Below, piece after piece: positions 4 through 63,609 of a stretch of DNA of 64,000 bases. The notes beneath the pieces were generated by a model. That model was not told where the DNA came from. It did not search any database and saw nothing but the letters and a program-made list of their open reading frames with translations. A program made the position numbers and the translations under genes. Source of the DNA: Candidatus Pacearchaeota archaeon (lineage in GTDB: Archaea; Nanobdellota; Nanobdellia; Pacearchaeales; GW2011-AR1); the NCBI GenBank assembly GCA_050302495.1, contig JBNLBP010000001.1:191269-255268 (forward strand). Direction: 5' to 3'. How positions within the stretch are numbered: the stretch's first letter is position 1; the number at the start of each line of letters is the position of its first letter.

Positions 4-708
4 TTGGTCGAGGACAGCAGGGAAGAATTTTCTATGGAAAATATAGAAAAGAAAGTTTTGATGTATAGAATGCAGGCAGGAAATCCAATAAATAATCCAA
101 AGTTTCCGATTAAAGAATCTCCTCAATTAACAAGGTTATTGTTTCATCTTTTAGGTGATGGCTATGCAGGAAAGAAAGGAGAGAATGCGGGATATAGAAA
201 CACTTGTAAAGAACTTTTGGAAGAATTTAAAGAAGATTTGAAGATATTTGGAGATGTGCCTCTTTATGAACAAGAATATTCAGTAAAGTTCCCAAGAATT
301 TTAGCTAAAATTATTGAAGATTTTTATTGTGTGGATTGTGGTTGTTATAATAGTAATATTTCAAGAAATATTCTTAGAATTTCAAAAGAAAATCTATGTT
401 TTGGCATAAGAGCTTTTACAGATGATGAAGGATGTGTTTATCCTTATATAATTAGAATTACTTCTGCTAATTTGAATCTTCTTAGTGGAATTAAGGACAT
501 TTTGGATTTTTTGAAAATAAAAAATAATGAAATAAAATTTCAATTCAATTCAAAATCAAAATATGGGAAAGTTTATTATTTGGATGTTAGAGATTTAGAA
601 ACTTATAGAAGATTAATTGGGTTTACATCTCCGAAGAAAAAAGAATTGCTGGATAATTATGTGAAAAGAATTAAAAGCATAAGAAGAAAGAAGCTACTCA
701 AGACCTAA
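4..708 (+). CDS. LAGLIDADG-type homing endonuclease-like protein (double motif), 5' end probably truncated by window edge
   Basis: Motifs LLFHLLGDGYAG and IRAFTDDEGCVY resemble two LAGLIDADG dodecapeptides in one chain. The first in-frame start-like codon at nt 4 is TTG right at the window edge, so the ORF likely continues upstream. The 3' end overlaps the 3' end of convergent ftsY by 15 nt. Confidence 0.55.
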   Translation: MVEDSREEFSMENIEKKVLMYRMQAGNPINNPKFPIKESPQLTRLLFHLLGDGYAGKKGENAGYRNTCKELLEEFKEDLKIFGDVPLYEQEYSVKFPRILAKIIEDFYCVDCGCYNSNISRNILRISKENLCFGIRAFTDDEGCVYPYIIRITSANLNLLSGIKDILDFLKIKNNEIKFQFNSKSKYGKVYYLDVRDLETYRRLIGFTSPKKKELLDNYVKRIKSIRRKKLLKT

Positions 709-1971
709 ACTATTTATGAAGTCGGTTCTATTGAATGGAATTAAATCATCTAATCTCTGTCCAGTGCCCAAATAAAGTATTGGTTTGCCTGTTGTTGCTC
801 CAACACTTAAGGCAGTTCCACCTTTTTCATCTATATCTGCTTTTGTAAGTATTATTCCATCAATTTTTACTGATTTGTCAAATTCTTTTACTTGTTCTAT
901 GATATCATTTCCAGTAATTGATTCTCCAACAAATATCTTTAAATCAGGTTTGCAAACTCTTGTAACTTTTTCTATCTGAGCCATAAGGTTCTTTTCAGTG
1001 TGCATTCTTCCAGCTGTATCTATTAGAACTACATCAATTTCATTTTTCTCTGCATATTTTATTGCATCAAAACCTACTGAAGCTGGGTCTGACCCGTATT
1101 CGTGAGCAATAACTTTTGTCCCTAAAACTTCTGAGTGTTTCTTTAATTGTTCAATTGATGCGGCTCGGAAAGTATCTCCTGCTGCTAAAACAGAGGTTAA
1201 ATTATTTCTTGATAGTAAGTCTGAGATTTTTGCTATCGTGGTGGTTTTTCCTGTTCCATTAATTCCACAGAAAAGTATTATGTATGGTTTCTTTTGTTCT
1301 TTTCCACGGTATAATTTTATGTTTTTTATTACGTTAAATGGTTCGACTAATAATTCATAGATTATATCTTTCAGAGTCTCATTTATTTGAAATTCCATTT
1401 CTTTCTTTAGGAATTCTTTGTCAACAATTCTTTCTTTTAGTTGTTCTATTATTTTTTCAGATACTTCAAATGCAACGTTATTCTCTAAAAGAATTATTTC
1501 AAGATCTTCTGCATATTTCCAAAAATCTTTTTCAGATATTTTTACTTTATTTATTTTGGAAGTGAATTTTCCTAATATTGACTTTTTTGGAGTTTCTTTC
1601 TTTTCTATTAATTCCTCTTCTATTTCTTTTATTTTTTCTGTATCTGGTTCATAGATCTGCCTCCCTTCATTATATTTTAAAGGGGTTTCTATTAATTCAG
1701 GTATTGTTTCTTTTTCTTCATATTCAGGAGGCTCTATTTCAGGTATTTCTGGGACTATTCCTTCTTTGACTTTTGTTTTGGCCTTTTTTGCTTGATTTTG
1801 GGCTTTCTCAGATTTCTTCTCTTTTTTTGCTTTCTTAGTTTCTTCTTGTTTTGGAGCTTTTTCCAATTCTGTTTCTTCTACTTCTTGAATTATCTCTTCT
1901 ACTGATTCTTCACTCTTTTTTGACAGCCCTTTTGTCCAGGATTTCAATCTATCTTTAAGTTTTCCAAACAT
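694..1971 (-). CDS. ftsY: Signal recognition particle receptor FtsY
   Basis: SRP GTPase NG domain motifs: GINGTGKTTT (G1), DTAGR (G3), TKADID (G4). K/E-rich low-complexity N-terminal extension. ATG at 1969-1971. Confidence 0.9.
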   Translation of the reverse strand: MFGKLKDRLKSWTKGLSKKSEESVEEIIQEVEETELEKAPKQEETKKAKKEKKSEKAQNQAKKAKTKVKEGIVPEIPEIEPPEYEEKETIPELIETPLKYNEGRQIYEPDTEKIKEIEEELIEKKETPKKSILGKFTSKINKVKISEKDFWKYAEDLEIILLENNVAFEVSEKIIEQLKERIVDKEFLKKEMEFQINETLKDIIYELLVEPFNVIKNIKLYRGKEQKKPYIILFCGINGTGKTTTIAKISDLLSRNNLTSVLAAGDTFRAASIEQLKKHSEVLGTKVIAHEYGSDPASVGFDAIKYAEKNEIDVVLIDTAGRMHTEKNLMAQIEKVTRVCKPDLKIFVGESITGNDIIEQVKEFDKSVKIDGIILTKADIDEKGGTALSVGATTGKPILYLGTGQRLDDLIPFNRTDFINSLGLE

Positions 1972-2069
1972 GTTTTTAAAAGAAATCTATTATTTATAAT
2001 ATTAACTCTGTTACCACTCTTATTTTGTCTAAATTTTTATAAATAATTTGGTTCTTGTATTTCTATAAA

Positions 2070-6672: not shown

Positions 6673-6762
6673 AGCCTGTGACCGGATTTGAACCGGCGAC
6701 CTACTGCTAACTTGTTAAATTTTAAGTACAAGGCAGCCGCTCTGCCACTGAGCTACACAGGC
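6673..6762 (-). tRNA. tRNA-Thr (anticodon TGT) with an 18-nt intron at canonical position 37/38
   Basis: Reverse complement folds as acceptor GCCTGTG/CACAGGC, D-arm GCTC-AGTGGCA-GAGC, anticodon stem GCTGC/GCAGT, loop CTTGTA..A, T-arm GCCGG-TTCAAAT-CCGGT. Intron about 6709-6726; its ACAAG segment pairs with loop CTTGT, giving a BHB-like helix. No encoded CCA. Confidence 0.8.
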
Positions 6763-6868: not shown

Positions 6869-7315
6869 ATGAACTGGAGCTACTTTGCTGGATTTATGGA
6901 CGGAGAAGGTTCCATTATTCTTAAACCTCCTAGAGTTAGACTTTATGTGGCAAACACCAATAAGCAAGTTTTAGAAGAAATTAGTAATTTTCTTGGTTGT
7001 GGTAAAGTTTACGATATAAATATGAAAAACAAAAGTGATAAATGGAGTAAACAATATGGTTGGACGATTGCCAATCATAAAGATGTTCTTAGGATTTTGA
7101 AAGGTTTGAAAAACAGATTAATAATTAAAAAACAACTTTGTCAGGATGCAATTAAGTATATTGAAAATAAACGATGGCAGAGGAACTATTTATCCAAGGA
7201 AGAATTGCAAAAGTGGGTTTATTTAAAATCCAGTCGAAAAATTGCCAGAAAATTAGGTGTTAGTCAATCTGCAGTTTTAAATTATCTTAAGAAGTATGGA
7301 ATTTATTATCGGTAA
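6869..7315 (+). CDS. LAGLIDADG homing endonuclease-like protein (single motif, with C-terminal HTH)
   Basis: N-terminal YFAGFMDGEGSI is a near-canonical LAGLIDADG motif. C-terminal SRKIARKLGVSQSAVLNYLKKYG looks like an HTH. 148 aa. Starts 107 nt from the tRNA-Thr 5' end and abuts rps3ae tail-to-tail. Confidence 0.7.
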   Translation: MNWSYFAGFMDGEGSIILKPPRVRLYVANTNKQVLEEISNFLGCGKVYDINMKNKSDKWSKQYGWTIANHKDVLRILKGLKNRLIIKKQLCQDAIKYIENKRWQRNYLSKEELQKWVYLKSSRKIARKLGVSQSAVLNYLKKYGIYYR

Positions 7316-7921
7316 TTATTCTGTTTTTTCTTCAGTTTCTTCATCTTTCTTTTTTTCTGCTTTTGGTTCCTCTTTTGGAGCAGATTCTAGAACTTTCTTA
7401 ACTTGTAATGCTCTTATTTCAAAAGCTGAAAGAGGGTATATCTTCTTTGCTTTAAGACTTATTTCTTTTTGCAGTTTGTTTCTTAGTATGTCTGTGAATA
7501 ATTCTTCGTAAGTAAGGTTTTTTGCATATTCCTTTAATTCTTGATTTACTTTGTTTCTTAATGCTCTTCTTAGAGCTTTAGATACTTTTCTTCTTGTAAC
7601 TAAAATTGGTTTTATTATTAATACTGCATCTTTACAATCCAACTCAAAAGAGTCTTCTACATAATCTGTACCCTTTCTTATTATTCTCTTTACATAATAC
7701 GGAACTATTGATATTTTTCTAGGAGTTGAAGTTGCTTTGCCATCTTTTACTGATACTTCTGAATCTAATAGTATACTTTTTCCTTTGAGTATTCTTGTTA
7801 AGTCGTATTTTATGAATTTTCCTTCTAATTCTTCAACTTCAAATGCAATTAATTGGGTTTCTTTTCCAATTATAGGCATTTCCACTTCAAAAAATCTTTT
7901 TTTACGTTTTGCTATTGCCAT
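7316..7921 (-). CDS. rps3ae: 30S ribosomal protein S3Ae (eS1)
   Basis: MAIAKRKKRFFEVEMP N-terminus and overall profile match archaeal S3Ae. ATG at 7919-7921 chosen over the longer ORF-track start, which would overlap the upstream gene. Confidence 0.8.
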   Translation of the reverse strand: MAIAKRKKRFFEVEMPIIGKETQLIAFEVEELEGKFIKYDLTRILKGKSILLDSEVSVKDGKATSTPRKISIVPYYVKRIIRKGTDYVEDSFELDCKDAVLIIKPILVTRRKVSKALRRALRNKVNQELKEYAKNLTYEELFTDILRNKLQKEISLKAKKIYPLSAFEIRALQVKKVLESAPKEEPKAEKKKDEETEEKTE

Positions 7922-7922
7922 T

Positions 7923-8240
7923 TTATTCTTGTACCTGTTTTCCTGCTCGTTTATTTCTTGTTGAATCTCTGTATTTTGACTTGTTACATTCACTACAGGT
8001 GTACATTATGTTTGTCTTTTTAGTTGTTTTGGATTTTCTCTTAAATTTTGACACAGCTGGTTTAGATCCCCACTTTCCTTTATTTCCTATCCCAATCCCT
8101 AATCCTCTTTTTTTAGCTCTTGAAATTGAACCTCTTGTAAGAGTACCTCTTTTATTTCCAGTCGAGACTAGTTTTATCTTTTGTTCTGTTTTCTTTTTAC
8201 AATATGGACAAAATCTGTTTGTCTTTTTTGGAATCTTCAT
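7923..8240 (-). CDS. rpl44e: 50S ribosomal protein L44e (eL42)
   Basis: MKIPKKTNRFCPYCKKKT...TKKTNIMYTCSECNKSKYR matches the zinc-ribbon L44e/eL42 family. ATG at 8238-8240. Confidence 0.75.
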   Translation of the reverse strand: MKIPKKTNRFCPYCKKKTEQKIKLVSTGNKRGTLTRGSISRAKKRGLGIGIGNKGKWGSKPAVSKFKRKSKTTKKTNIMYTCSECNKSKYRDSTRNKRAGKQVQE

Positions 8241-9499: not shown

Positions 9500-11353
9500 A
9501 TGCTATTAAGAGGTGTAAAGAAGGGGCAAGTTACTATTTTTATTATCATTGCAATAGTTATTGTTGCTGCCGTTGGAATTTTCTTTTTATTGAGGAGTCA
9601 GACTAGTATTTCTAGGATTCCTTCTGAGTTTGCACCAACTTACGAAAGCTTTACTTTTTGTCTAGATAGCAAGGTTGAATCAGGGGTTAAGGCTTTGGAA
9701 TCTCAAGGAGGCTACATTGATTTGCCTGAGTTTGTTTCTGGTTCAGAGTATATGCCTTTCTCTTCTCAACTTAATTTATTAGGTAATCCTATTCCTTATT
9801 GGTATTATGTGTCTGGAAATAACATTGAGAAGGAACAGGTTCCAAGTAGGCAAGATATGGAAAATGATTTGAGCGGTTTTATTGAATCCAAAGTTGTTGA
9901 TTGTATCCCTGAAGACTTGGATGAAGGTTTTGAGATTACTGTGGGAGATCCTTTGGTCCGGACTAGCATTAAACCAGGAGAAGTCCAGGTCAATGTTAGA
10001 ATGGATTTTACAATTAGTAAAGATGATGAGTCAGTGAGTATTAATAATCATCAATTGATCTTTGATTCAGAGTTAGGAAGGTTGTATTCTAATGCAATTA
10101 TTGCTTACGAGGCTGAACAAGATGAGTTGTTTTTAGAGAATTATGGTGTTGATGTTTTGAGATTATATGCTCCTGTTGATGGAGTTGATTTTACTTGTAG
10201 CCCTAAGGTTTGGAGTGCTGATGAAATATTTGAGGATCTATCTGTCGCAATACAAGAAAACACACTTTCTATTAAATCTCAGGGTAACTCTGAAGATTAT
10301 TTTGTGGTAGATTCTTTGAATTCAAGAATTTCTGATGGGTTTTATGTGAAATTCCTTAATTCAGAAAGTTGGTCAAGTAGTTTTGAAGTAAATCCTTCTG
10401 ATGGTCCTATTTTAATTGCAAATGCAATTGGAAATCAGCAAGGTTTGGGGGTTTTAGGATTCTGTTATGTTCCATATCATTTTGTGTACAATGTTAATTA
10501 CCCTGTTTTGGTTCAGGTTTATAGTGAAAATACAGATGAGTTCTTCCAGTTTCCTGTTGCTGTAGTCTTAAGGGGTAATAAAGCTAGGGAGGCTGTTGCT
10601 TCTTCTGGTGCTTCAACTTATGAGGGCCCCAATATATGTGAAAATAAAAATACTGGTCTGAGAGTAAGGACTATTGATTCTAACTCGAATCTTGTTAATT
10701 CAGAGATTTATTTTGAGTGCTTTGGGGATAGTTGTAAAATAGGAGATAGTGAAAATGGTATCTTAGAAGATGCTTTCCCTCAGTGCGTTAATGGATATAT
10801 AATTGCAAAGGCTGAAGGTTTTGAGGATACTAGTGTCCAGATAACTAACATTGGTCCTGGGAACTTTGATATTATCATGAATAAACTTTATGATACAGAA
10901 GTTCTTTTGAATTTGGATGCGATTGCTTATAATGGAGAAGCTACAATTACTTTTGAAAGAGAGGGTTTCTCTCAAACATTGGTTTATCCAACTCAAAAAG
11001 AGATTAGTTTGAGTGAAGGGTCTTACAATATCAGTGTTTATATTTATAGAAATGCTTCTTTGAGTTTAGGATCAAGTGTTCAACAGTATTGTATTGACGT
11101 TCCTAGGGCGATAGGAGGTTCTTTGGGTTTGACTAAAGAAGAATGTTTTGATGTAGAAGTTCCTGAACAAATTATTTCTAATGCTCTTTCCGGAGGAGGA
11201 GAAGTTAATTATTATGTTTCTGAAAATCAATTAAGTAGTGCAAGTCAGATTGTTGTGGGTGCAACTAGCCTTCCAGAGCCAAATTCACTTAATCAACTTC
11301 AGCAAAACTATGTTTTATTTGATAGTAAAAGTTTGGAGGTTTTACTTAGATGA
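9500..11353 (+). CDS. membrane-anchored extracellular protein, hypothetical
   Basis: N-terminal TM/signal anchor (TIFIIIAIVIVAAVGIFFLL) followed by about 580 aa of S/N/G-rich non-hydrophobic sequence. Its stop overlaps the giant-protein ATG (ATGA, 11350-11353), suggesting translational coupling. Confidence 0.6.
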   Translation: MLLRGVKKGQVTIFIIIAIVIVAAVGIFFLLRSQTSISRIPSEFAPTYESFTFCLDSKVESGVKALESQGGYIDLPEFVSGSEYMPFSSQLNLLGNPIPYWYYVSGNNIEKEQVPSRQDMENDLSGFIESKVVDCIPEDLDEGFEITVGDPLVRTSIKPGEVQVNVRMDFTISKDDESVSINNHQLIFDSELGRLYSNAIIAYEAEQDELFLENYGVDVLRLYAPVDGVDFTCSPKVWSADEIFEDLSVAIQENTLSIKSQGNSEDYFVVDSLNSRISDGFYVKFLNSESWSSSFEVNPSDGPILIANAIGNQQGLGVLGFCYVPYHFVYNVNYPVLVQVYSENTDEFFQFPVAVVLRGNKAREAVASSGASTYEGPNICENKNTGLRVRTIDSNSNLVNSEIYFECFGDSCKIGDSENGILEDAFPQCVNGYIIAKAEGFEDTSVQITNIGPGNFDIIMNKLYDTEVLLNLDAIAYNGEATITFEREGFSQTLVYPTQKEISLSEGSYNISVYIYRNASLSLGSSVQQYCIDVPRAIGGSLGLTKEECFDVEVPEQIISNALSGGGEVNYYVSENQLSSASQIVVGATSLPEPNSLNQLQQNYVLFDSKSLEVLLR

Positions 11354-14300
11354 TTAAGAATAAGTTTTTTGTTGTAGGTATTTTTGTTTTGATATTGGGG
11401 ACTCTTCTTTTGGGAGGGATAGAGGCTTATAGCGTTTCTACTCCTAGTTATTCTTTGTATAACAATGCTGGAGGTGTTGGGGGAAGTTTTGCAAGTTTTA
11501 CTCAGCAAGGTTTTGATAGCGAATTATGTTCTGCTGGAACAGATTTTCTTTTACAAATACAACCTTTTGAATGTGAGCCTGCAGTTGTGAGGAGTGATCT
11601 TCTTGAAGAACAAGATGTTACTGTTTTGTGTAAAATTGGAGCTACACAAATAAATCCTTTGATTGATGTTCAAGCTATAAACACTCTAAACATTGTTGGG
11701 GAGTATCCTAGAGAAATAAAGAGTATTGGTTATTTCCCTTCCCAGTCTGCTTTGGGTTATTATGATTTTGATGAAACTCTTACTGATCCTGCTTTGAATA
11801 ATTTGGGTTATGTTGCTATAACCCTTAGACAAAACCCTAATGAAAGTTCTATGCCTGATTTTGTTTCTGGAAATCTAACAGCCAAGATTAATTATGATGT
11901 TAAGAATGCATTTGGCGTTGGTCAGGCTGAATTTTATCTTCCTGTTTTGAATGATGAGGATTATTTTAACAATATAAATCAGTATAGTTTTTGGGAAGGT
12001 AGAGGGTACCTTAGGGCTGATAGTGTTGGCACGGATGATGCCAGTATATCTCTTTATTCTGATGTTTCTTCTGGATCTGCTAGTTTTGGAAACTCTGGAA
12101 AGCAAAGAGTTACTCAAGTTAGATTGAATGGAGGTGAAACTTCTGGTTCGATTTATATTCCTGGTTTTAGCCCTTGTTTGGCTTCAATGAAGTTGAAACT
12201 TAATGGTGTTGAAGATCCAGATACTAGAGCAGAGTTGTTGATTAATACAGATCATGTTGAAATTAATGATAATGGTGATTTCTTAGAAAGTAAGTGTACT
12301 GTAACAGATTTGGACAAGAATGGTTTGAATCAGAAAGTTAGTATTAGGTGTAAGGAAGATGATGGCAGTTCTAGTTTTAATTTATTTTTGTCCCCTAGAG
12401 TGAGAATCTCTATTGATGGAATTGCTAAAGATTATTCTGTTGGAGATTATCTTTATTCTAACAATGGAAGAGGTGTTTATTTGGGTTATATTAGTTCTAA
12501 GGGTGGATCAACAGATGTTGAAAATTTATATGCCGTTTTGGTTTCTTTACCTGAAGAGAAAACTAAGTTAACAGAGGATGAAATTTCAAGTATTGCAATA
12601 CAAATGAATCTGTTGTTTTCGGATACTGAAGGTTCAGGAGCAGCGGTTTTTGATATTGGGGCCGAAATTCTAAAGAAATTCTCAGGGGCTTCAGTTACTC
12701 TTGCCAAATGGACTGTTAGCGGACAAAATATACAAAAAGTTGATTTTAAGACAAATGTTGTTTCCCCTCAATATGATTTTGAAGGAGAAAAAGTTTCCTT
12801 AAGTGGTTTTTCTGAAGGAGAAGATAATGGGGTTGTTGAGGTTGTTCCGGAATCTTATGATTTACAGAAAGCTAATTTAGATGTTGGAGGGATTTTGCCT
12901 AAACAAGTTTACAAAGTTTACAAGGATGGAGAAGATACAGGTTATTATTTTACTGCTAGTGAGAGTGGATCTCCTAAATTTATTTTGAGAAAGAACACTG
13001 TGACGGAGATTTTAGGTGTGGGAGAATTTTATGGAAAGGATTGTTCTTTACATCAGTCTTGTTCTGAGTATATTTTATCAAAGGTAGATAACAGCGTTTC
13101 AGGAGACTTTTTTGAAGGAGTTGTTTCAGGAAGTGTTTTAGTTAATGAGAATAAACTTGTTTTAAACAAACTTGTATTTAATTCAAATTCAAACGAGTTG
13201 TATAAACAATATTATGATAAAGCTATAACTGATTTTGAAACTGTTTTGAATAGTTTTGGAGGGTTAAGTATTGATGGGGCAGATGATACTTATGGTGAGA
13301 GAGCTTTGTATCAGGCTATTAATCTTTCTAAAAGGATCAATCAAAATAAGGCTTTGAAACAACTTTGTCAAGAATTTATTGAGAGCTATCCTGATTCAAT
13401 TAAACCTTTAGATATGTGTGAAGATGACTATTCTTTATCTAACTCGGGTATTTCTAATAGAGATGTTTTAGTTAACGGAGAGATAAAAACAATTTCCTTT
13501 GAAGGTATAAAAGAGCCTACTTACCAAGAATACGGTGCAGAAGTTTTGATAAGAAGTTCGGACGGTAAGATCCAGACTTATCAATTAAGAAAGGATAAAG
13601 TTGTATATTTGAATTTAAAAGATAATGCTTCTGGTTCAGAATATATTAAACTAGATTCGGTGGATGAAGATTCTGCAAGGGTTACGGTTTATGTTTCTGG
13701 AGAAAATCTTGCAAATCAATTATTTTCTTTGAATAGCTATACTTTTGATATTGATGAAACAAGAGGTATTGGAGGAGGGTATAGTTTAACCCTTACTGAT
13801 ACTAACATAGAAAAGGTTGCAAGGGTTTCAGTGGTTCCAAGTTTTAATTATCAGAATTCTGAATCTGAATTTGGATTTAATATTGGCATAGAGAAACGTT
13901 CAATACAACTTTCTGACGAACAGATTGAGAATAGGGTTGATAGTTTAAGTAATGCAATTTCTGATCTTGAAAAGGCTTCAAATGCTCTCAATACGTTTAA
14001 TGAAGCTAGTGCTAAGGTTTGTTTAGCAACAGGAGCTGTTTTAACTGCTAAGAATTTCTTGGCTAACTCGGATGGTAAATCTATAGCGAGACAGAAGGTC
14101 ATGCGTAGTTCTGGAGGGTGGAATGATTTTTGTGCTAGTGAAGTAAGTAAAGGGAATTATATTTCTCTAGATGATTGTTTCCTTGAGAATTCTGATGAGA
14201 TAGATTCTCAAGTTGATGAAGTTTTCAATACAATACAAACTCAGAATGAAAGAATAAAACAACTTGAAGCTGATTCTTTGCAAACAGGAACTTTAACAAA

Positions 14301-17300
14301 TAAGGTTGTTGATCAACAGGAATTTATGAAGGATTATTCTCAGATTGGATCTGATTCTTTAGTGGGCTTGGGTAATACTTTCGTCGATCCTACTGGTAAA
14401 AATGAACCTCTTGAGATTGATGAAATTAAGAATTTGTTAAGTTACCAGGGTTGGGAAAGTGGTATCTATAGCATAGATGATCTTAAAGATATAGAGCTTT
14501 ATGCAACTTTAGTTAAGAGTACAAATGATGCTGAGAGCAAGAAGTCTTACAGCCAAACACTTTACTCTTTGCTTTATGACGTTCAAAATAACGCAGGGAA
14601 TTTTGTAGAAAGAACTTCTTTCTTTGACAAGTATTCTCTAGAGGGTCACCAGGGAGGATTTATTTCTTCAGATGATAAGATAAAGAGAATTCAGGTTTCT
14701 GATTTAAAGACTTGGGCAGATGTTGAAAGTTCATATCCTGGAGGGATGAGTGTTGTTTTACTTCCAAATTCGATTATCTTCCCTGGAAACCCTGCAGATT
14801 ATCTTATTGCGGATAATGAATTGGTTTATCCGGTTGTTGATATAGCTACTAATAGGGAATATCTTTTGGTTTTGAATGATGATTATATTGTTACTAGAAC
14901 ATTCCAGTTAAATCCTTTGAATGGTCAGTTGGTTATGGTTAATGATAAAGTAAACCCTCTGAGTTTAGCTTTTGATAAATATGATGAAGGTTCATATGAG
15001 AATAGTTATAAGAATCCAGAAGTAAGGTATTATGAGGAAGACCCTTACAAAGGTTATCCTGCGATTGTTCCTTTAGATACAAATGATGGTTGGTATGCTG
15101 CAACTAAACCTAAGCTTCCTGTTGGAAGTCAGATTACTGCTTATGATGCTTCAGGTAGATTGAATAGTTTCTGGTTATGTAACGTTGGATCTAATGGTTT
15201 GGAAGAATTTTCTAGTTCTGGTTTAGGAGATGATATTTGCCAACAAATTAATGTGGGGGTTCCTGGAACTGTTTATAATCAATTTGCTGGATTGAGTGAA
15301 AGTAAAACTACAAGGCTTGTAACTGATGCTGTTGATTCGATTGAGAAGGCTCAGAGAGCTTATAAGAATGGAGTTAATTCTGTTAGAATCAACGGTCAGA
15401 ATTACAAAGTTGGAGAACCTGCGGTAGAAACTCCCGCAGTTCAGTGTCAAGATTTCATGTCTCCTAAAGAATGTAATTTATTGTTTAATGTTTGTGATCC
15501 TGTTGTTTGTCCTAGCTCAAGATGTGATTTTGGAGGGGCTTACCCTGTTAAGGATGTTGTTCAGACAGGAATAGTTGGAAGTATTGCTCTCTGTGCACCA
15601 AATTATAAAGAGGGGATAAAGGTTCCGGTTTGTACAACAGGTGTTCAAGCTGGTTTGGATTCATGGATAAGTGTCCAGGAATCATATAGGGATTGTTTGC
15701 AGGAAAATTTGGAGAGTGGAGAAACTATTGGTGTTTGTGACGAGATACATAGTGTTTATGCTTGTGAATTCTTTTGGAGACAATCAATACCTTTGGCTAA
15801 AGTAGCTGTTCCAAAATTAATTGGATTAATTTCAGGAGAGAACACCCGTGGTGGAGGAGAATATCTGGGATTACAGAGTGCATGGGATAATGCAAAAGAT
15901 TCTTTAGACTACTTTAAACAATATTATGCTTCTGAATCTTATAATGCTTTCAAAGTTAGAAGTGTTGATGAAGCTGGAACTGCGGTTTGTAAAAGTTATG
16001 TATCTACGGTTTACCCTTCTAGTGCTGAATTATTAGATAGTTTAACTACTCCACGTTCGCCTCCGCAATTTACAGGAAGCTTTGATGAGATTCCATTTAC
16101 TACCGCAACAAATCCTCCCACCTCACAGTATAAGGTTTATTACCACATTTATTCTGGACAAGATTCTGGAGCTTATTACAGAGTTTATCTTAAGGGTGGA
16201 AGTGGGAGTTTCTATCAAGATAGCGCGCTTAATAGAGTAGTTGATTCCGGTTACGTTTCAGTAGGAGATTATGCTTCAGATACAGTTGACTTTACTGCAC
16301 CTTCAGGATATACCCAATTATGTATTGTTGTAAATAATCAGGAAGAGTGTGGTTTCGGAAAAGTGTCAACTTCTTTTGCAGTTAATTATGTTAATGATTT
16401 GTATTTGCAGGAACAAACTACTTCGGGGGTTACAACAGAAGAAGAATGTGTTTCTGGAAGTGCTAGTTTGTATAGCTTATTGAATCCTAACCTTCAAGAT
16501 GTGGCTGAAGGTTTAATCAACCCTGAGCTGTACCAAAAAGGTATTACAAGAGTTTGTGCTACAAACAGCCCTGGTATTGGAACGGATGCTAAGGATGGGA
16601 CTGAAAATGCAAGATGGAGAAAAGTGGGTTACTGTACAGATACAAACGTTGGTTGTTGGCTAGATACTGATTCCGTTAAAGATGCTATTAAATCCTTAGA
16701 TGTTGAGAATTCTGTTTTAAATGACACCGCTCAGAGTTATCTTGATGATTTGGTAAATTCTGGAGATTATGTTAACAATCAGAATTATAGTCAGACTTTA
16801 AGAGACGTTAAGAAAGAATCTGATTCTTCTAAGAAGATAGAAATAATAAATAATATTTTGGATAAGGTATTCTTTAGTAATCAAAAAGCTGAACTTTATT
16901 TCTTGAGAGGTTTGGCTTATGGAGATCTTTCTGGTTTGGAATTTGGTAAGATTGAACAAATAAAAACAAATAGTGTGGACCTTGGAACAATTGTTGATGA
17001 CCAAGGAAACGTTTGCATCTTGCCTCAAGTTCCTAGTGATATTTCTTCAATTGATGATGCTCGGCAAAGAGTATTGAAAGCTGCAGAAAAATTAGATGGG
17101 GGTTTGGCTTTCTCTGGAGATTATGCGTGCTATAGTGCTGCTGTTTATGTATACCAATATGCAGGGGTTTCTGCTGTTCCTTCTTATGCAGATAAATCTG
17201 GGGCCACCTATACCTTAAAGGATTCAAATTCAAAAGTTACAATTGGCGTAGATAAAACTTCTCAAGGAAGTGTTATTTTCCAAGTTGGAACAGGTTATAA

Positions 17301-19425
17301 TAAGATCGGAGAAGATAACTATGATACTAAACTAGCATCTCTTCAACCTGGAGACCAGTTGGATATTGTTTGGGCCTCTAAATTGCCTCACTCGGTTATA
17401 TTTATTTCTTGGATTAATCCTGCCACAAATGAAGAAACTACTTCTGTTACTGGATATGCTAGAATCTTTGATTGGAATGGTGCAGATTTGAAGATCGATG
17501 AGAAAGATGAAAATGGGCTTGTTTGTGGAGAAGATAATAAGTATGTTAGAACTCTTAATAAGGGTAAAGTTAATGAGGAACAATATTGTAATACTTACAG
17601 ATACACGAATTTGTATTTAACTTCTGATGTTCATCCTGTTTATCTATATAGATCTCCTCAATTAAGTGGCACAACTATTTCTACGGGTACTGGTGGTACG
17701 GGAGTTAGTAGTGTTTTAGCCAAGTTTTCTTCAGGATATTCTTCTCCTGATATTGAATTCCAAGATGGAACTAGTTATAGAAATGTTCACTATAAGTTCC
17801 AAGAGGGAGGTTGGTATTGGTTTAATCCCAAAGATAATTTTTGGTATTCTGTTAGCGATAGTATTGAAGGTAAGGCAGTTTCATTGGAGGTGAATAGACA
17901 AATAATTACTTCTCTTCAAGAACGTAATGGCAACTACATAGAGGGTCTTGGAGTTATTATAAATAATGTTCTTAGTTTCAGTGGGGGTGTTTTGTTTGGT
18001 AGAATTAATTTCATTAGTTCTAGTCCGGATTTGAAAACAGAGAATGTTAATTTGAATAGTGAAGGTATCTTTAAGGTAGATCTTTCTTTTAATGAACAGC
18101 CTTATTACTTTAGATTTAAAGAAGGTGTATGGGAATTTAATCCTACTAGGGGTATTGATCCACGTTATTGGTTTGATGTTTCGGACGTTTCATTTAATAA
18201 AGCTGCTAGTCAGGTTTTGGTTTCAGGTGAAGCTAAGGTTGTAGGTTCAATTCCTTCAGATCCAATACAATCTGTTACCGTGAGCCTTGTTGATAAGACT
18301 TATTTTGAGGGGGCTGCCCTGCTTTATGATTTGTCGGATAATTCAATAATTGAGTCTACACAGGATGTTGATTCTCAAAAATTGGATTCTTGGGAGAGTG
18401 AGAATTTAGGAAGCACCGATTTGGGCAGGTTTACTTCAAAACAAATTTCAATACTTTATGATGCTCCTAGTTGCGTTTATTGTGAGAGTTATCCTGATGA
18501 TTGTGATAGTAATTTATGTGCAGTTATTGGTAAAAAATTAGGCGCTTCTTGTCAGTATTATGCAAAGGGTGCAGATATAAGTGATACTCCTATATACAAT
18601 TGTCGTGCAGGAGAAGGGTACACAGATAGAGAATTAAGATCAATATATGAAGCAACTCAGTGTAATGATTGTGGGTCTGGTTTGGGTAACTTCTGTGGTG
18701 AGACTGAATGCTTAGATATTGGGGAAAGAATTGGTAAGACTTGTGAATATGGGTTCTTGAGTTGTAAAGAAGCACAACCTGCTCAAGACGACACTTCTGA
18801 TATTCCGAATTGGAATACTCTTTCTGCTGAACAAAGGGACGTTTATTCTAGTGCAACACAGTGTAGTGATTGTATAACAAGTATAAGTTCTACAAGTGGC
18901 ACTTCTAATTATTGCGATGCTAATCTTTGCGCATCAATTGGTTACAAATTAGGCAAGAATTGTGTTCAGGAACCAGGCTTGACTAAAACTTGTATTGAGG
19001 GAATTGGTTTAGATAATCTTGATCAACAGTTAGTTGATGCTCTTTATAGAGGTCTGGATGACAATAATAGGGCTGAGATAATGTCCTTGATTGAACAAGG
19101 AGCTGATATCAATGTTAAAGATGATGATGGATGGACTCCTTTGATTTATGCATCTCGTCTTGGACATCTTGACCTTGTAAAATATCTTGTTGAAAATGGT
19201 GCAGATGTTAGTGTTAAAGATGGTATAGAAGGTTGGACCGCTCTTATACATGCCTCTATTAAGGGAGATGTTGACATTGTAAAATATCTTGTTGAAAATG
19301 GTGCAGAGGTTAATACCCAAAGTGATTCTGGAGAAACAGCGTTAGATCGAGCTGTTCAACTTAATAATGTTGATGTTGTTAGTTATTTGCAATCTAAAGG
19401 TGCTAAATCTGGGAGTGAACTTTAG
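11350..19425 (+). CDS. giant (2691 aa) secreted/surface protein with C-terminal Cys-rich modules and ankyrin repeats
   Basis: Uninterrupted 8.1-kb ORF. N-terminal hydrophobic signal/anchor (FVVGIFVLILGTLLLGG). Several Cys-rich blocks, e.g. around 15450-15800 and 18468-19010. The last about 125 aa are 3-4 ankyrin repeats (DGWTPLIYASRLGHLDLVKYLVENGADV; GWTALIHASIKGDVDIVKYLVENGAEV; GETALDRAVQLNNVDVVSYL). Confidence 0.8.
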   Translation: MIKNKFFVVGIFVLILGTLLLGGIEAYSVSTPSYSLYNNAGGVGGSFASFTQQGFDSELCSAGTDFLLQIQPFECEPAVVRSDLLEEQDVTVLCKIGATQINPLIDVQAINTLNIVGEYPREIKSIGYFPSQSALGYYDFDETLTDPALNNLGYVAITLRQNPNESSMPDFVSGNLTAKINYDVKNAFGVGQAEFYLPVLNDEDYFNNINQYSFWEGRGYLRADSVGTDDASISLYSDVSSGSASFGNSGKQRVTQVRLNGGETSGSIYIPGFSPCLASMKLKLNGVEDPDTRAELLINTDHVEINDNGDFLESKCTVTDLDKNGLNQKVSIRCKEDDGSSSFNLFLSPRVRISIDGIAKDYSVGDYLYSNNGRGVYLGYISSKGGSTDVENLYAVLVSLPEEKTKLTEDEISSIAIQMNLLFSDTEGSGAAVFDIGAEILKKFSGASVTLAKWTVSGQNIQKVDFKTNVVSPQYDFEGEKVSLSGFSEGEDNGVVEVVPESYDLQKANLDVGGILPKQVYKVYKDGEDTGYYFTASESGSPKFILRKNTVTEILGVGEFYGKDCSLHQSCSEYILSKVDNSVSGDFFEGVVSGSVLVNENKLVLNKLVFNSNSNELYKQYYDKAITDFETVLNSFGGLSIDGADDTYGERALYQAINLSKRINQNKALKQLCQEFIESYPDSIKPLDMCEDDYSLSNSGISNRDVLVNGEIKTISFEGIKEPTYQEYGAEVLIRSSDGKIQTYQLRKDKVVYLNLKDNASGSEYIKLDSVDEDSARVTVYVSGENLANQLFSLNSYTFDIDETRGIGGGYSLTLTDTNIEKVARVSVVPSFNYQNSESEFGFNIGIEKRSIQLSDEQIENRVDSLSNAISDLEKASNALNTFNEASAKVCLATGAVLTAKNFLANSDGKSIARQKVMRSSGGWNDFCASEVSKGNYISLDDCFLENSDEIDSQVDEVFNTIQTQNERIKQLEADSLQTGTLTNKVVDQQEFMKDYSQIGSDSLVGLGNTFVDPTGKNEPLEIDEIKNLLSYQGWESGIYSIDDLKDIELYATLVKSTNDAESKKSYSQTLYSLLYDVQNNAGNFVERTSFFDKYSLEGHQGGFISSDDKIKRIQVSDLKTWADVESSYPGGMSVVLLPNSIIFPGNPADYLIADNELVYPVVDIATNREYLLVLNDDYIVTRTFQLNPLNGQLVMVNDKVNPLSLAFDKYDEGSYENSYKNPEVRYYEEDPYKGYPAIVPLDTNDGWYAATKPKLPVGSQITAYDASGRLNSFWLCNVGSNGLEEFSSSGLGDDICQQINVGVPGTVYNQFAGLSESKTTRLVTDAVDSIEKAQRAYKNGVNSVRINGQNYKVGEPAVETPAVQCQDFMSPKECNLLFNVCDPVVCPSSRCDFGGAYPVKDVVQTGIVGSIALCAPNYKEGIKVPVCTTGVQAGLDSWISVQESYRDCLQENLESGETIGVCDEIHSVYACEFFWRQSIPLAKVAVPKLIGLISGENTRGGGEYLGLQSAWDNAKDSLDYFKQYYASESYNAFKVRSVDEAGTAVCKSYVSTVYPSSAELLDSLTTPRSPPQFTGSFDEIPFTTATNPPTSQYKVYYHIYSGQDSGAYYRVYLKGGSGSFYQDSALNRVVDSGYVSVGDYASDTVDFTAPSGYTQLCIVVNNQEECGFGKVSTSFAVNYVNDLYLQEQTTSGVTTEEECVSGSASLYSLLNPNLQDVAEGLINPELYQKGITRVCATNSPGIGTDAKDGTENARWRKVGYCTDTNVGCWLDTDSVKDAIKSLDVENSVLNDTAQSYLDDLVNSGDYVNNQNYSQTLRDVKKESDSSKKIEIINNILDKVFFSNQKAELYFLRGLAYGDLSGLEFGKIEQIKTNSVDLGTIVDDQGNVCILPQVPSDISSIDDARQRVLKAAEKLDGGLAFSGDYACYSAAVYVYQYAGVSAVPSYADKSGATYTLKDSNSKVTIGVDKTSQGSVIFQVGTGYNKIGEDNYDTKLASLQPGDQLDIVWASKLPHSVIFISWINPATNEETTSVTGYARIFDWNGADLKIDEKDENGLVCGEDNKYVRTLNKGKVNEEQYCNTYRYTNLYLTSDVHPVYLYRSPQLSGTTISTGTGGTGVSSVLAKFSSGYSSPDIEFQDGTSYRNVHYKFQEGGWYWFNPKDNFWYSVSDSIEGKAVSLEVNRQIITSLQERNGNYIEGLGVIINNVLSFSGGVLFGRINFISSSPDLKTENVNLNSEGIFKVDLSFNEQPYYFRFKEGVWEFNPTRGIDPRYWFDVSDVSFNKAASQVLVSGEAKVVGSIPSDPIQSVTVSLVDKTYFEGAALLYDLSDNSIIESTQDVDSQKLDSWESENLGSTDLGRFTSKQISILYDAPSCVYCESYPDDCDSNLCAVIGKKLGASCQYYAKGADISDTPIYNCRAGEGYTDRELRSIYEATQCNDCGSGLGNFCGETECLDIGERIGKTCEYGFLSCKEAQPAQDDTSDIPNWNTLSAEQRDVYSSATQCSDCITSISSTSGTSNYCDANLCASIGYKLGKNCVQEPGLTKTCIEGIGLDNLDQQLVDALYRGLDDNNRAEIMSLIEQGADINVKDDDGWTPLIYASRLGHLDLVKYLVENGADVSVKDGIEGWTALIHASIKGDVDIVKYLVENGAEVNTQSDSGETALDRAVQLNNVDVVSYLQSKGAKSGSEL
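18468..19010 (+). repeat. three tandem Cys-rich modules within the giant protein (coding repeat)
   Basis: Modules SCVYCESYPDDCDSNLCAVIGKKLGASC / ATQCNDCGSGLGNFCGETECLDIGERIGKTC / ATQCSDCIT...NYCDANLCASIGYKLGKNC share the pattern ATQC-DC...C..LC..IG..LGK.C. Confidence 0.5.
19030..19422 (+). other. ankyrin-repeat region (C-terminus of giant protein)
   Basis: Repeated 33-aa units with the consensus G-TPL--A---GH-D-VK-L---GA-VN. Confidence 0.7.
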
Positions 19426-20180: not shown

Positions 20181-20253
20181 AGCGGAGGGTGGGACTCGAA
20201 CCCACGAAAAGCCGGGTTGCAGCCGACCGCAGTAGCCGCTGTGCCACCTCCGC
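20181..20253 (-). tRNA. tRNA-Cys (anticodon GCA)
   Basis: Reverse complement GCGGAGG-TG-GCAC-AGCGGCTA-CTGC-G-GTCGG-CTGCAAC-CCGGC-TTTTC-GTGGG-TTCGAGT-CCCAC-CCTCCGC-T. 73 nt, discriminator U. Confidence 0.85.
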
Positions 20254-20332: not shown

Positions 20333-20743
20333 ATGTTAGGTGATTTAAACTATTTGTCTGTTGTTGTAGCTCTTGTAGCTAGCTTTGTATTTGGGTGGCT
20401 TTGGTATGGAGTTATCTTTAGCAAGACTTGGATGAGGCTAAATGGTATGAATATGAAGGGGAAGAAGCCTAAGAAAGGTGTTATGGCTAAGGCTATGATA
20501 TTGAATATTCTTGGGACCTTTATTATGGTTTGTGTATTTGGTTTATTGATTTTAGCTACAGGGATGATTACGGTTAGTGGAGTTTTAACACTTGCACTTT
20601 GGATATGGTTAGGATTCTTTGTTAGTACAACTCTTTTAGGAAGTGTATTGTGGGATATGAAGCCTTGGGCGTTATTTTGTTTTAATGCTGTTTATTGGTT
20701 AATCAACTTAGTTATAGTTGGATTGATTCTTGTTTCTATATAG
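20333..20743 (+). CDS. integral membrane protein, hypothetical
   Basis: 136 aa with four predicted TM helices. Confidence 0.55.
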   Translation: MLGDLNYLSVVVALVASFVFGWLWYGVIFSKTWMRLNGMNMKGKKPKKGVMAKAMILNILGTFIMVCVFGLLILATGMITVSGVLTLALWIWLGFFVSTTLLGSVLWDMKPWALFCFNAVYWLINLVIVGLILVSI

Positions 20744-20813: not shown

Positions 20814-21551
20814 ATGGAGATTACAGAAGGTCTTTCGGAAATATTTGGAATGTTTGCAGCAGATGGGAATTTGCAGGAGAATCATATTAGTATGTGGGGC
20901 AATATTCATGAAGATAAGGAATACTATGATAGGGTTGTTTGCCCTTTGTTTTCTAAAGTATTTGGAATAAATGTAAATGCACATGAGAAAGAAAGCAATT
21001 CTGTTTATGGGTTTTACATCTGTAGGAAGGAGATAATTAAGATTTTCAAGGATTTTGGTTTTACTCGTAGAAAGACCTATTCGGTAAAAATTCCACATGA
21101 AATTTTATTTTCTAAAGACAAGAACATAATTTCGGCTTTTATAAGGGGTTTTGCTGATTGTGATGGTTGTTTAAATTTTATGAAACGTTATGAAAAAGGA
21201 TATTCTTCTTTTAAGAGAAAATATCATACTTATCCGAGGATTTTTATTGGTGTTGTTTCTAAGCAAATTATTTTTGATTTGAGTTTTTTGTTGGATTTCT
21301 TGAACATTGGCCATTCTGTTCACTTTTCTTCAAAGAAGAAGGTTAATGAGGCAGATGTTTATCGGATTGCTGTTAGGGGTCCAGAAAGAATAAATAAATG
21401 GATGGATTCTATAGGTTTCAATAATTACTCTAAATTTACGAAATATCTTGTCTGGAAAAAACATGGTTTTTGTCCAACCCCTTCTTCTCTTAAACAAAGA
21501 GAATTGATCTTGCAAAATGAATTAATTCCAGAAAGTCTTTATGAAATGTAA
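20814..21551 (+). CDS. LAGLIDADG homing endonuclease-like protein (double motif)
   Basis: Two dodecapeptide-like motifs, IFGMFAADGNL and FIRGFADCDGCL, about 100 aa apart. ATG at 20814. Stop lies 35 nt upstream of the intron-containing tRNA-Leu. Confidence 0.7.
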   Translation: MEITEGLSEIFGMFAADGNLQENHISMWGNIHEDKEYYDRVVCPLFSKVFGINVNAHEKESNSVYGFYICRKEIIKIFKDFGFTRRKTYSVKIPHEILFSKDKNIISAFIRGFADCDGCLNFMKRYEKGYSSFKRKYHTYPRIFIGVVSKQIIFDLSFLLDFLNIGHSVHFSSKKKVNEADVYRIAVRGPERINKWMDSIGFNNYSKFTKYLVWKKHGFCPTPSSLKQRELILQNELIPESLYEM

Positions 21552-21585: not shown

Positions 21586-21711
21586 GCTCCGGTAACTCAG
21601 CCTGGATAGAGTGCCAGATAAATTGAATAAAATGAGATTTAGGCAAACCTTCTATCCAGTTAAGTCTGGAAAGTAAGCTGGAAGTCGCAGGTTCGAATCC
21701 TGTCCGGGGCA
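21586..21711 (+). tRNA. class-II tRNA, probably tRNA-Leu (anticodon TAA), with an about 41-nt intron at a non-canonical position
   Basis: Acceptor GCTCCGG/CCGGGGC + A, D-arm ACTC-AGCCTGGATA-GAGT (Leu-like AGCCTGG loop), T-arm GCAGG-TTCGAAT-CCTGT. Total 126 nt; a class-II tRNA of about 85 nt would leave an intron of about 41 nt. The only canonical loop reading is U33-UAA-G37 (TTAAG at 21660-21664). This forces the intron (about 21619-21659) to lie after position 32 rather than 37. A 9-bp helix CTGGATAGA (21603-21611) / TCTATCCAG (21651-21659) spans it. Exact junctions unresolved. Confidence 0.6.
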
Positions 21712-30224: not shown

Positions 30225-30254
30225 TTTTTTAAACTTGTTTTGTTTTTTGGTTTT

Positions 30255-61244: not shown

Positions 61245-61278
61245 GTTTGTTTTAAGAAAAGCACTTATTTAAATTTAA

Positions 61279-62455: not shown

Positions 62456-62478
62456 AGAAAATTATCTTCAGATTTAAT

Positions 62479-62566
62479 GCCCTGGTAGCTCAGTTGGTTA
62501 GAGCGAACGGCTGTTATTTCCCAAACAGATACCGTTAGGTCGCAGGTTCAAGTCCTGCCTGGGGCG
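62479..62566 (+). tRNA. tRNA-Asn (anticodon GTT) with a 14-nt intron at canonical position 37/38
   Basis: GCCCTGG-TA-GCTC-AGTTGGTTA-GAGC-G-AACGG-CTGTTA[TTTCCCAAACAGAT]A-CCGTT-AGGTC-GCAGG-TTCAAGT-CCTGC-CTGGGGC-G. Intron at 62517-62530; its AACAG pairs with loop CTGTT, giving a BHB-like helix. Confidence 0.8.
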
Positions 62567-63609
62567 TATTTCCTTCTTTTATTACATATTTCTAGTAGGT
62601 CTTGATGACCTATTTTTCCTTTAATTAATGCTATTCGTTCTGTTGTTTTTGAATTTGGGAAAGTATTTCTAAATTTTATGTAACATTCATATTTTGAAAG
62701 GTGTTTTATATTGTTTAATTTCCATTTATTTATTATTTCTATTGCTCCTTTTTTGTTGATGTAGAATCTTCCGTATCCTTTATATTTTGTTAGTTTAAAC
62801 TTGATTTTGTTTTTTGTGAATATTTCTGCTAGTTGGTCAAGAATAGTAAAACTTGCTAATTTTCCTGTGATTGCTATCGAACTTGTTATACTAAAATCGG
62901 TATCAATAATCCCTGCAGCACATCTTTTTGATAACTCTTTGTTTTTCATTATTTCTCCAGGAATTTTTATTTTTTTCTTGTTTCCAGAATCTAATTTTAG
63001 AATATTCTTTTTAAATTCTGTCACGGCTCTGGACTTAATTCTTGTTTCAATGGAATTTTTTGATGGTCTTTCTATAATTGTTGGTTTTATTCCATAAATC
63101 TTATGTAATAATTCTTTGAGATGCTTTTTGTGATATATTTCTTCATCTTTTAAATCTCCAGTAATTGTGTAAACATAATATTTTATTCCATCTTTTCTTG
63201 GTGCATTTTGCAGATTTCCGTCTCCTATATGTATTCCTACCTCTTCCGCTAGATCTCCTGTTATTTCTTTTGGTATTCTTACTCTTCTCTTTATGTCTGG
63301 CCAAGAAAGATGTACTTCTGAATGATGTTCAATATCTTTAAAGAAGATTTTGTAAAGATTTTTTGTAGATCCAAATTTTTGTCTTATTACTACATCACTC
63401 CCGTATCCTGCAATCCAAGTTGTTATGTAAGAATTTATTTGTCTAAACTTTTCATATTGTATTCTTGCAGCTTCAATTAATCTTGTTTTTGGGTCTTTTA
63501 TTTTCCTAATGTTTTCTATTTTTGATGAAGATATTTTGAATTCTTTTTCAGGAATATTTAATCTTTCTTCTTTCGGCAACTCTCTCCATTTTTTCTTTAT
63601 AGAAATCAT
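62548..63609 (-). CDS. LAGLIDADG homing endonuclease-like protein (double motif, N-terminal extension)
   Basis: LAEEVGIHIGDGNL and RCAAGIIDTDFSIT motifs after an about 110-aa N-terminal region. ATG at 63607-63609. Last 19 nt overlap the 3' end of tRNA-Asn on the opposite strand. Confidence 0.7.
   Translation of the reverse strand: MISIKKKWRELPKEERLNIPEKEFKISSSKIENIRKIKDPKTRLIEAARIQYEKFRQINSYITTWIAGYGSDVVIRQKFGSTKNLYKIFFKDIEHHSEVHLSWPDIKRRVRIPKEITGDLAEEVGIHIGDGNLQNAPRKDGIKYYVYTITGDLKDEEIYHKKHLKELLHKIYGIKPTIIERPSKNSIETRIKSRAVTEFKKNILKLDSGNKKKIKIPGEIMKNKELSKRCAAGIIDTDFSITSSIAITGKLASFTILDQLAEIFTKNKIKFKLTKYKGYGRFYINKKGAIEIINKWKLNNIKHLSKYECYIKFRNTFPNSKTTERIALIKGKIGHQDLLEICNKRRKYAPGRT

Follow-up and report, generated by a model that had tools for sequence, protein, structure and literature searches.

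Free-standing LAGLIDADG genes beside tRNA genes in a Pacearchaeota chromosome: probable intron-less homing with co-conversion of the linked tRNA allele

Introduction

Why do five genes for proteins of the LAGLIDADG type lie in a short stretch of one archaeal chromosome, each set against a tRNA gene or the end of a protein gene? The question is raised by 64,000 nt of Candidatus Pacearchaeota archaeon (assembly GCA_050302495.1, contig JBNLBP010000001.1, positions 191,269-255,268, forward strand), the whole of which we call the window. Homing endonucleases of archaea are known from rRNA introns and inteins, and free-standing endonucleases that spread by intron-less homing are known mainly from phages. 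Text searches of the literature turned up no account of free-standing LAGLIDADG genes linked to archaeal tRNA genes. We consider it likely that the five open reading frames (ORFs) represent five separate lineages of free-standing LAGLIDADG homing endonuclease genes on the chromosome of this DPANN archaeon, each lineage specific for one conserved neighbour, and that they spread by intron-less homing in which the linked tRNA allele is co-converted.

Results

Five intergenic genes with intact LAGLIDADG motifs

The sequence of the window is archaeal, with a G+C content of 32%, and its proteins find matches in metagenome-assembled genomes (MAGs) of Pacearchaeota, Woesearchaeota and Nanoarchaeota. 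A preliminary description made from the letters alone had picked out five LAGLIDADG ORFs, one with a single motif and a helix-turn-helix (HTH) and four with double motifs, and this account holds for all five:

1-708 (ORF 4-708), plus strand: copy 1, double-motif LAGLIDADG gene (Pfam LAGLIDADG_3, 29.4 bits, two stretches)
6869-7315, plus strand: copy 2, single-motif LAGLIDADG gene with a C-terminal HTH (Pfam HTH_50, 4e-10; LAGLIDADG_3, 24.5 bits)
20814-21551, plus strand: copy 3, double-motif LAGLIDADG gene (Pfam LAGLIDADG_3)
30668-31447, plus strand: copy 4, double-motif LAGLIDADG gene (Pfam LAGLIDADG_3)
62548-63609, minus strand: copy 5, 353 aa, in which a helical domain of ~110 aa at the N-terminus precedes a double-motif LAGLIDADG core

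LAGLIDADG endonucleases carry one or two dodecapeptide motifs with an acidic last residue on an alpha-beta-beta-alpha-beta-beta-alpha core, and they cleave DNA site-specifically, leaving 4-nt 3' overhangs. Copies 1-4 score above the curated cut-off of Pfam LAGLIDADG_3. Copy 5 has no match in Pfam, and its assignment comes from a profile that hhalign aligns to the copy-4 family over 234 columns (probability 98.5%, E 2e-15) and from an AlphaFold model (predicted local distance difference test score 93.5) that Foldseek matches to I-DmoI with a template-modelling score of 0.78 and a root-mean-square deviation of 2.7 A. The core fold, repeated twice in the monomer, was checked on copy 5 alone, by this predicted structure. 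A hidden Markov model of the copy-4 family detects copy 3 (3e-16) as well as copy 5, and the profile of that family leads to I-DmoI, I-Tsp061I and PI-PfuI in the PDB. Profiles were required for this, as single-sequence PDB searches with copies 4 and 5 gave nothing useful; NCBIfam holds no dedicated model, and its matches are confined to intein regions of large proteins.

The motifs read GDG and DDEG in copy 1, DGEG in copy 2, ADG and DCDG in copy 3, GDG and TDG in copy 4, and GDG and DTDF in copy 5. Their catalytic acidic residues are intact, being invariant in 30 relatives of copy 4, 26 of copy 5 and 11 of copy 1. The Asp at both motifs never varies in the copy-4 family, and GDG and DTDF are invariant in the copy-5 family, which comprises 79 clusters. 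All five ORFs have their own start and stop, lie between genes and stand outside introns and inteins, so that they are free-standing as first described. Copy 1 runs past the 5' edge of the window, with ~13 codons absent as judged against its relative P0201, and it lacks an identical database entry because it is cut there. We infer that the five proteins cut DNA.

Copy 4 is absent from most orthologous sites

The evidence for mobility comes chiefly from copy 4, whose site in the window is bounded by three genes:

30240-30602, plus strand: HIT-family gene, right-hand flank of the copy-4 insertion site (Pfam HIT, 4e-20; synteny)
31407-31479, minus strand: tRNA-Met(CAU) of the allele that we call type A, no intron (Rfam, 72.8 bits; allele typing)
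31527-31733, minus strand: gene for ribosomal protein S17e, left-hand flank of the copy-4 site (Pfam; synteny)

Comparisons were made in a sample of ~90 related loci, numbered L001 onwards. A genome scan with X300, a conserved neighbour protein of ~300 aa that has no Pfam match, yielded 65 loci from different species, and the tRNA-Met site is covered in 51 of them. The genes there form a conserved array in the order ProRS, HIT, copy 4 where present, tRNA-Met, S17e, X300, EndA and LeuRS.

Homologues of copy 4 number at least 378 at 45-59% identity. In 10/10 loci the gene touches tRNA-Met, lying between the HIT gene and the tRNA 3' end. The window copy converges with tRNA-Met and overlaps it by 41 nt, its last 13 codons being antisense to the tRNA and its stop falling in the anticodon loop. 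Such a tail, antisense to the tRNA 3' half, ends at least 42 of 120 proteins of the family, and copy-4 transcription would therefore run antisense through the tRNA. Antisense-encoded C-termini of ~13 residues occur in the window (31407-31447), P0002, P0006, P0009 and others, for example MAALGVEPRTSSS, and the TGA stop codon of copy 4 is supplied by the CAU anticodon loop read in antisense.

Of the 51 orthologous S17e / tRNA-Met / HIT loci, those of 9 lineages carry copy 4. Many of the loci that lack it are clean empty sites in which the tRNA 3' end is only 20-200 nt from HIT; thus the empty-site polymorphism that had been proposed as proof of mobility exists at this site. On a neighbour-joining host tree of EndA and X300 the carriers are scattered, requiring at least 6 gains or losses, and the phylogeny of copy 4 is discordant with that of its hosts. 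The copies in L027 and L043 are 43% identical where EndA is 81% and X300 73% identical, and those in L027 and L034 are 91% identical where EndA is 84% and X300 75% identical. L001 and L055 align collinearly with 89% DNA identity, apart from 782 bp inserted in L001. A second pair, L020 and L028, has diverged too far for a conversion tract to be delimited.

Directly upstream of copy-4 homologues we observed an ORF of ~45-60 aa that has no Pfam match and resembles ribbon-helix-helix (RHH) proteins by eye only. It is preceded by a conserved promoter-like element, TGTAATACAGTAATACTTATAAA, and lies at the following positions:

L002:3822-4004, small RHH-like ORF
L013:12249-12440, small RHH-like ORF
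L067:1773-1960, small RHH-like ORF
L070:12519-12700, small RHH-like ORF

The tRNA-Met allele changes with copy 4

Two tRNA-Met alleles occur at the copy-4 site, type A with the 3' end ...GGTTCRACTCCCAGTGYAGCCA and type B with the 3' end ...GGGTTAAAWTCCCYCAGAGMCA. Copy 4 is found at 7/17 type-A sites and at 2/34 type-B sites (Fisher p = 0.004). Parsimony on the host tree places type B at the root, with ~13 switches between alleles.

The insertion in L001 begins ~20 nt upstream of the tRNA and holds nothing except a type-A tRNA and copy 4. Just past the copy-4 start come 44 nt that match the 3' end of the L055 type-B tRNA exactly, and after them the flank is again that of L055. Relative to L055, the whole tRNA has thus been replaced, including its 5' half and ~20 nt upstream. 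The corresponding place in L027, L034, L043, L067 and L070 holds a type-B stub of 17-34 nt. In L067 an ORF with a TrmB-like HTH lies between copy 4 and the stub.

Stubs of type B are also found in L014 and L018, which are free of copy 4, and the resident tRNA of L018 is type A. L023 has a type-A tRNA and no copy 4, and its downstream flank is joined straight to the tRNA; L070, a sister that carries copy 4, has this flank beyond its stub. Loss of copy 4 appears as a clean deletion that leaves the type-A tRNA, a stub, or both (L018, L023). Taken together, these comparisons support co-conversion of the flanking tRNA allele with copy 4, as far as sequence comparison can indicate it.

The type-B tRNA-Met(CAU) is itself unusual in having the T-loop GTTAAAW, with A replacing the near-universal C56 (L055:11357-11429, L028:11390-11463 and ~30 other loci). 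Position 37 is G in both alleles, and one sub-variant of type B has GGTCAGCAC. Further incomplete copies of the T-arm and 3' end of tRNA-Met lie downstream of the resident tRNA in copy-4-free loci (L040:11346-11364 and 11468-11492; L014:2419-2590) and may be scars of earlier insertions.

The other copies and their neighbours in the window

Seven further genes of the window adjoin or flank copies 1, 2, 3 and 5:

694-1971, minus strand: ftsY, SRP54-type GTPase (Pfam SRP54, 1e-67), presumed target or homology flank of copy 1
6673-6762, minus strand: tRNA-Thr(UGU) with an 18-nt bulge-helix-bulge intron at 37/38 (Rfam alignment, ARAGORN -i, fold)
7316-7993, minus strand: rps3ae, gene for ribosomal protein S3Ae (Pfam Ribosomal_S3Ae)
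20181-20253, minus strand: tRNA-Cys(GCA)
20333-20743, plus strand: gene for a DUF1761 membrane protein (Pfam DUF1761, 1e-24)
21586-21711, plus strand: tRNA-Arg(UCU) with two introns (alignment to the intron-less orthologues in L057 and L028; Rfam, 42.5 bits)
62479-62566, plus strand: tRNA-Asn(GUU) with a 14-nt intron at 37/38 (Rfam alignment, ARAGORN -i, fold)

Copy 1 converges with ftsY and its 3' end overlaps it by 15 nt. Copy 2 begins 106 nt from the divergent tRNA-Thr(UGU), and its end at 7315 meets that of rps3ae at 7316 tail-to-tail. Copy 3 ends 35 nt before tRNA-Arg(UCU), with which it shares its strand, and copy 5 converges with tRNA-Asn and overlaps it by 19 nt. The coordinates thus bear out the overlaps of 15, 41 and 19 nt and the abutment on rps3ae that the preliminary description had reported. 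Four of the five LAGLIDADG genes lie within 110 nt of a tRNA gene, as do 13/61 genes of the window overall (hypergeometric p = 0.006).

The tRNAs beside these four copies had been named Thr, Leu, Met and Asn, and this stands with one correction. We rejected Leu for the tRNA beside copy 3, which is tRNA-Arg(UCU) by Rfam, by ARAGORN and by alignment to orthologues. Identities in the window were taken from Rfam alignments and from ARAGORN with introns allowed, and these overturned the labels that ARAGORN gives by default, Leu for Thr and Thr for Asn. The program misnames intron-bearing archaeal tRNAs more widely, calling Thr Leu, calling Asn Thr, Tyr, Ser or Stop, and calling Met Ser; the positions affected are 6673-6762 and 62478-62567 in the window and loci L002, L004, L005, L079, L081 and L084.

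Three tRNAs of the window contain introns, and each of them abuts a LAGLIDADG ORF. The tRNA-Thr and tRNA-Asn genes are interrupted at 37/38, and tRNA-Arg(UCU) has a 30-nt intron at 30/31 and a 20-nt intron at 37/38, separated by a 7-nt micro-exon (CCTTCTA). In the predicted fold, the first tRNA-Arg intron pairs with the D-arm. Elsewhere in the window, a single ORF of 2691 aa occupies 11350-19425, in a small-genome archaeon.

Each copy belongs to a family with one partner

Each copy is a member of its own conserved family, bound to one partner in genomes of Pacearchaeota and Woesearchaeota. The adjacency seen in the window recurs in related genomes, where the same pairings of family and tRNA are found in dozens of independent cases.

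The copy-1 type is the exception in having no tRNA link, its partner being the 3' end of ftsY or endA. P0201, 58% identical to copy 1, also converges on ftsY. More distant relatives of 357 and 300 aa (L071:3001-5115; L072:1833-4402) overlap the 3' end of EndA, and the longer relatives have an extra N-terminal region. In both loci, the overlapped EndA is one of two adjacent tRNA-splicing endonuclease paralogues, and in L072 the LAGLIDADG gene lies between the two together with a nitroreductase gene.

Copy 2 has 11 homologues from metagenomes at 62-74% identity. A tRNA-Thr(UGU) adjoins these homologues in 7 distinct loci (L074, L075, L076, L079, L081-83 counted once, and L084) as well as in the window, and rps3ae is conserved beside them. 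The distance to the divergent tRNA is 95-118 nt in L074, L075, L076, L079 and L081-83. L084 is arranged differently. There, 20 nt from the 3' end of tRNA-Thr are repeated exactly behind the homologue, and the resident tRNA-Thr has a 31-nt T-loop intron at the point where the duplicate starts. ARAGORN reads this locus as a gene within a "569-nt tRNA intron", which we rejected: a complete tRNA-Thr is followed by the gene and then by the 20-nt duplicate of the tRNA end.

For copy 3 there are 1075 representative homologues. In relatives, tRNA-Cys and tRNA-Arg(UCU) are 3-220 nt apart, compared with a 1.3-kb stretch holding DUF1761 and copy 3 in the window, and the adjacent pair is free of ORFs in L008, L009, L012 and L057. 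L028 has a copy-3-like ORF at a distance of 35 nt from the tRNA-Cys/tRNA-Arg(UCU) pair, and L068 has a LAGLIDADG ORF that runs into the start of a tRNA with an intron. In ~875 kb of related sequence, these two are the only other LAGLIDADG ORFs, and both abut tRNAs.

Homologues of copy 5 converge on tRNA-Asn(GUU) in 4/4 loci. Between mnmA and the KH gene, L003 and L004 have copy 5 and tRNA-Asn jointly inverted with respect to the window, and in L005 the pair lies in unrelated flanks. No tRNA stubs were found beside copy-5 homologues.

Introns in the linked tRNA genes

Whether these genes have a link to the gain of tRNA introns was raised early on, and for tRNA-Met such a link finds no support. 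Introns show no association with copy 4 there, occurring in 3/9 carriers and 13/46 non-carriers, and on these rates we rejected the idea that tRNA-Met introns confer immunity. Interrupted tRNA genes are in any case frequent in these lineages: tRNA-Arg(UCU) has an intron in 12/20 loci, and only one of the 20, L028, where tRNA-Arg is intron-less, has a LAGLIDADG ORF beside the tRNA pair. The tRNA-Thr linked to copy 2 has introns in 6/7 homologue loci and in the window, and the two tRNA-Met genes of type B that stand beside copy 4 are likewise interrupted. Every tRNA-Asn gene linked to copy 5 (4/4) has an anticodon-loop intron, and these introns are of two kinds at two positions, one of them a group I intron.

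The group I intron, of ~222 nt, interrupts the tRNA-Asn(GUU) gene at L003:5080-5374 on the minus strand (GCA_030648155.1, a Nanoarchaeota MAG). It matches Rfam RF00028 with 81 bits and E 3e-19, and lies between anticodon positions 35 and 36, where it follows a U and has G as its last nucleotide. The tRNA-Asn group I introns of Patescibacteria occupy the same site (PMC13011429), and all the group I introns that Nawrocki et al. 2018 report from archaea lie in rRNA genes (PMC6125680).

A bolder proposal would be that tRNA introns, both bulge-helix-bulge and the one of group I, have spread because they break the endonuclease site, and that tRNA-targeting endonucleases are a major driver of tRNA turnover in DPANN archaea. 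The introns in all four copy-5-linked tRNA-Asn genes, the two introns of tRNA-Arg, the T-loop intron of L084 at the start of the stub and the introns of the type-B tRNA-Met genes are hints in this direction; we nonetheless regard the proposal as doubtful. If true, it would be an archaeal form of collaborative homing and would explain by selection why archaeal tRNA introns are so abundant and so oddly placed.

Discussion

In regard to mechanism, the reading that we think probable is intron-less homing in which the linked tRNA allele is co-converted. The enzyme would cut the endonuclease-free allele of the neighbouring gene in another genome, and repair of the break from the carrier copy would bring in the endonuclease gene together with the adjoining cleavage-resistant allele. 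For copy 4, the moving unit would be a cassette of ~0.8-2 kb consisting of a type-A tRNA-Met and the endonuclease, which would displace the resident type-B tRNA-Met and leave its 3' end behind as a stub. The endonuclease gene could later be deleted while the resistant tRNA allele remains. Type A is presumably resistant to cleavage, and we infer that the cut falls inside the tRNA gene, with the stub boundaries suggesting the T-arm or the anticodon arm.

This reading refines the one first offered, namely homing of free-standing genes into spacers beside conserved genes. Empty sites, patchy distribution, discordance with the hosts and linkage to a tRNA allele all favor homing at the copy-4 site. 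The idea of a plain drop into a spacer needs qualifying, as the unit is usually a tRNA plus endonuclease that replaces the resident tRNA. Copy 1 and its relatives stand at the 3' ends of protein genes and are not linked to a tRNA.

Several observations weigh against homing with co-conversion. Two copy-4 lineages stand beside type-B tRNAs, and therefore type A is not the sole compatible allele. Neither the window nor L066 has a stub. Divergence within the copy-4 family resembles that of the host neighbours (47-50% vs 50-66%), and therefore much of its inheritance is vertical. A classical homing cycle predicts some pseudogenes, and no copy-4 pseudogene fragments were detected in empty sites at E <= 0.5. 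The host tree was built by neighbour joining from two proteins, and its event counts are rough. Finally, empty sites are direct for copy 4 only, and that of copy 3 rests on the adjacency of the tRNAs in relatives.

Alternatively, the endonuclease genes may be passengers on cassettes that are small integrative elements, or products of illegitimate recombination that targets tRNAs, for example through an integrase acting in trans, with the stubs as att-like repeats. A partial tRNA 3' copy at the far end of an insert is a classic signature of integration into tRNA genes, shared with integration of the pNOB8 and SSV types, and a tRNA fragment beside a recombinase-carrying insert in Caldiarchaeum is comparable (PMC3293823). 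Extra cargo in some cassettes, namely the RHH-like and TrmB-like ORFs, would also fit. Unlike the pNOB8- and SSV-type cases, however, the inserts here have no integrase, measure less than 1-2 kb, replace the whole tRNA and leave stubs of variable length. The 782-bp insert of L001 consists of the endonuclease gene and the tRNA, without a recombinase. An integrase would change only the 3' part of the tRNA, whereas in L001 the 5' half and ~20 nt upstream were replaced as well, and stubs of 17-44 nt share no fixed core. Furthermore, each of five unrelated sites has its own endonuclease lineage, and the copy-4 profile found no relative in the viral contigs scanned. The missing recombinase, the replacement of the entire tRNA and the variable stub length make an element of the integrase type unlikely.

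Slightly less probable still, in our estimate, is the other explanation put forward at the outset, that the LAGLIDADG proteins have been domesticated for a host function connected with the neighbouring tRNA, for instance as a WhiA-like regulator, a factor that binds tRNA genes or a splicing helper, and are inherited vertically and repeatedly lost. Full-length identities of 45-60% and stable lengths within families are in keeping with domestication, as are the host-like divergence, the HTH on copy 2, the tRNA-splicing endonuclease genes near copy 4 and beside copy-1-type genes, and the absence of pseudogene debris from the empty copy-4 sites. Against it, copy 4 occupies only 9/51 syntenic lineages and is missing from a sister genome 89% identical to a carrier, its gene tree disagrees with host proteins, and the neighbouring tRNA allele has been swapped with the old tRNA left as a stub. 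Domesticated proteins of the WhiA type have lost the LAGLIDADG catalytic acidic residues; here those residues are invariant, as fits a nuclease. Domestication is therefore unlikely, on account of patchy distribution, discordant phylogeny and invariant catalytic residues. That adjacency to tRNAs is chance in a compact genome, where 13/61 window genes within 110 nt of a tRNA make the prior not small, is refuted by the recurrence of the family-tRNA pairings in dozens of independent genomes, together with the in-window p of 0.006, and has virtually no probability left.

Our findings fit into a broader picture of mobile endonucleases, among which SegB of phage T4 would be the closest analogue of homing as we propose it. 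SegB lies in a tRNA cluster, recognises a T-arm motif and spreads the surrounding tRNA genes (PMC2330249). In the seg and mob systems, as here, a free-standing gene stands among or beside tRNA genes, its target is thought to lie in a neighbouring conserved gene, and endonuclease and flanking tRNAs are inherited together against a rival allele (PMC2330249, PMC2988022). SegB differs in being a GIY-YIG enzyme of a phage that acts in co-infection, whereas the genes described here are of the LAGLIDADG type, reside on cellular archaeal chromosomes and have had their behavior deduced from sequence. The present case is also unlike SegB in its five lineages, each dedicated to one tRNA or protein gene, and in the replacement of whole tRNAs with stubs left behind.

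By fold, the nearest relatives are I-DmoI, I-Tsp061I and PI-PfuI, which share the double-motif monomer and give the best sequence and structure matches. Those enzymes are encoded inside rRNA introns or inteins, whose removal restores the host gene; ours, in contrast, are intergenic, with a start and a stop codon of their own, and adjoin or run into the 3' end of the gene next to them. Collaborative homing (F-CphI with the psbA intron; mobE with I-TevIII) offers another parallel in that a free-standing endonuclease lies beside a target with an ORF-less intron, as do copy 5 beside tRNA-Asn, copy 2 beside tRNA-Thr and copy 3 beside tRNA-Arg. Unlike in those systems, introns and endonuclease are not associated at tRNA-Met, and the majority of the introns are of the bulge-helix-bulge kind, which proteins splice, and so are not ribozymes.

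The free-standing homing endonuclease and intron-less homing are thus already established as an element type. What appear to be new are the setting in cellular DPANN chromosomes, the dedication of each of several lineages to a single tRNA, and the cassettes that replace tRNAs and leave stubs. If confirmed, these genes would provide a mechanism for the horizontal replacement of tRNA genes in reduced genomes and an explanation for stray tRNA fragments, and they would constitute a natural set of meganucleases with predictable, tRNA-derived targets. Confirmation would also make directly testable the question of why archaeal tRNA genes are so often interrupted.

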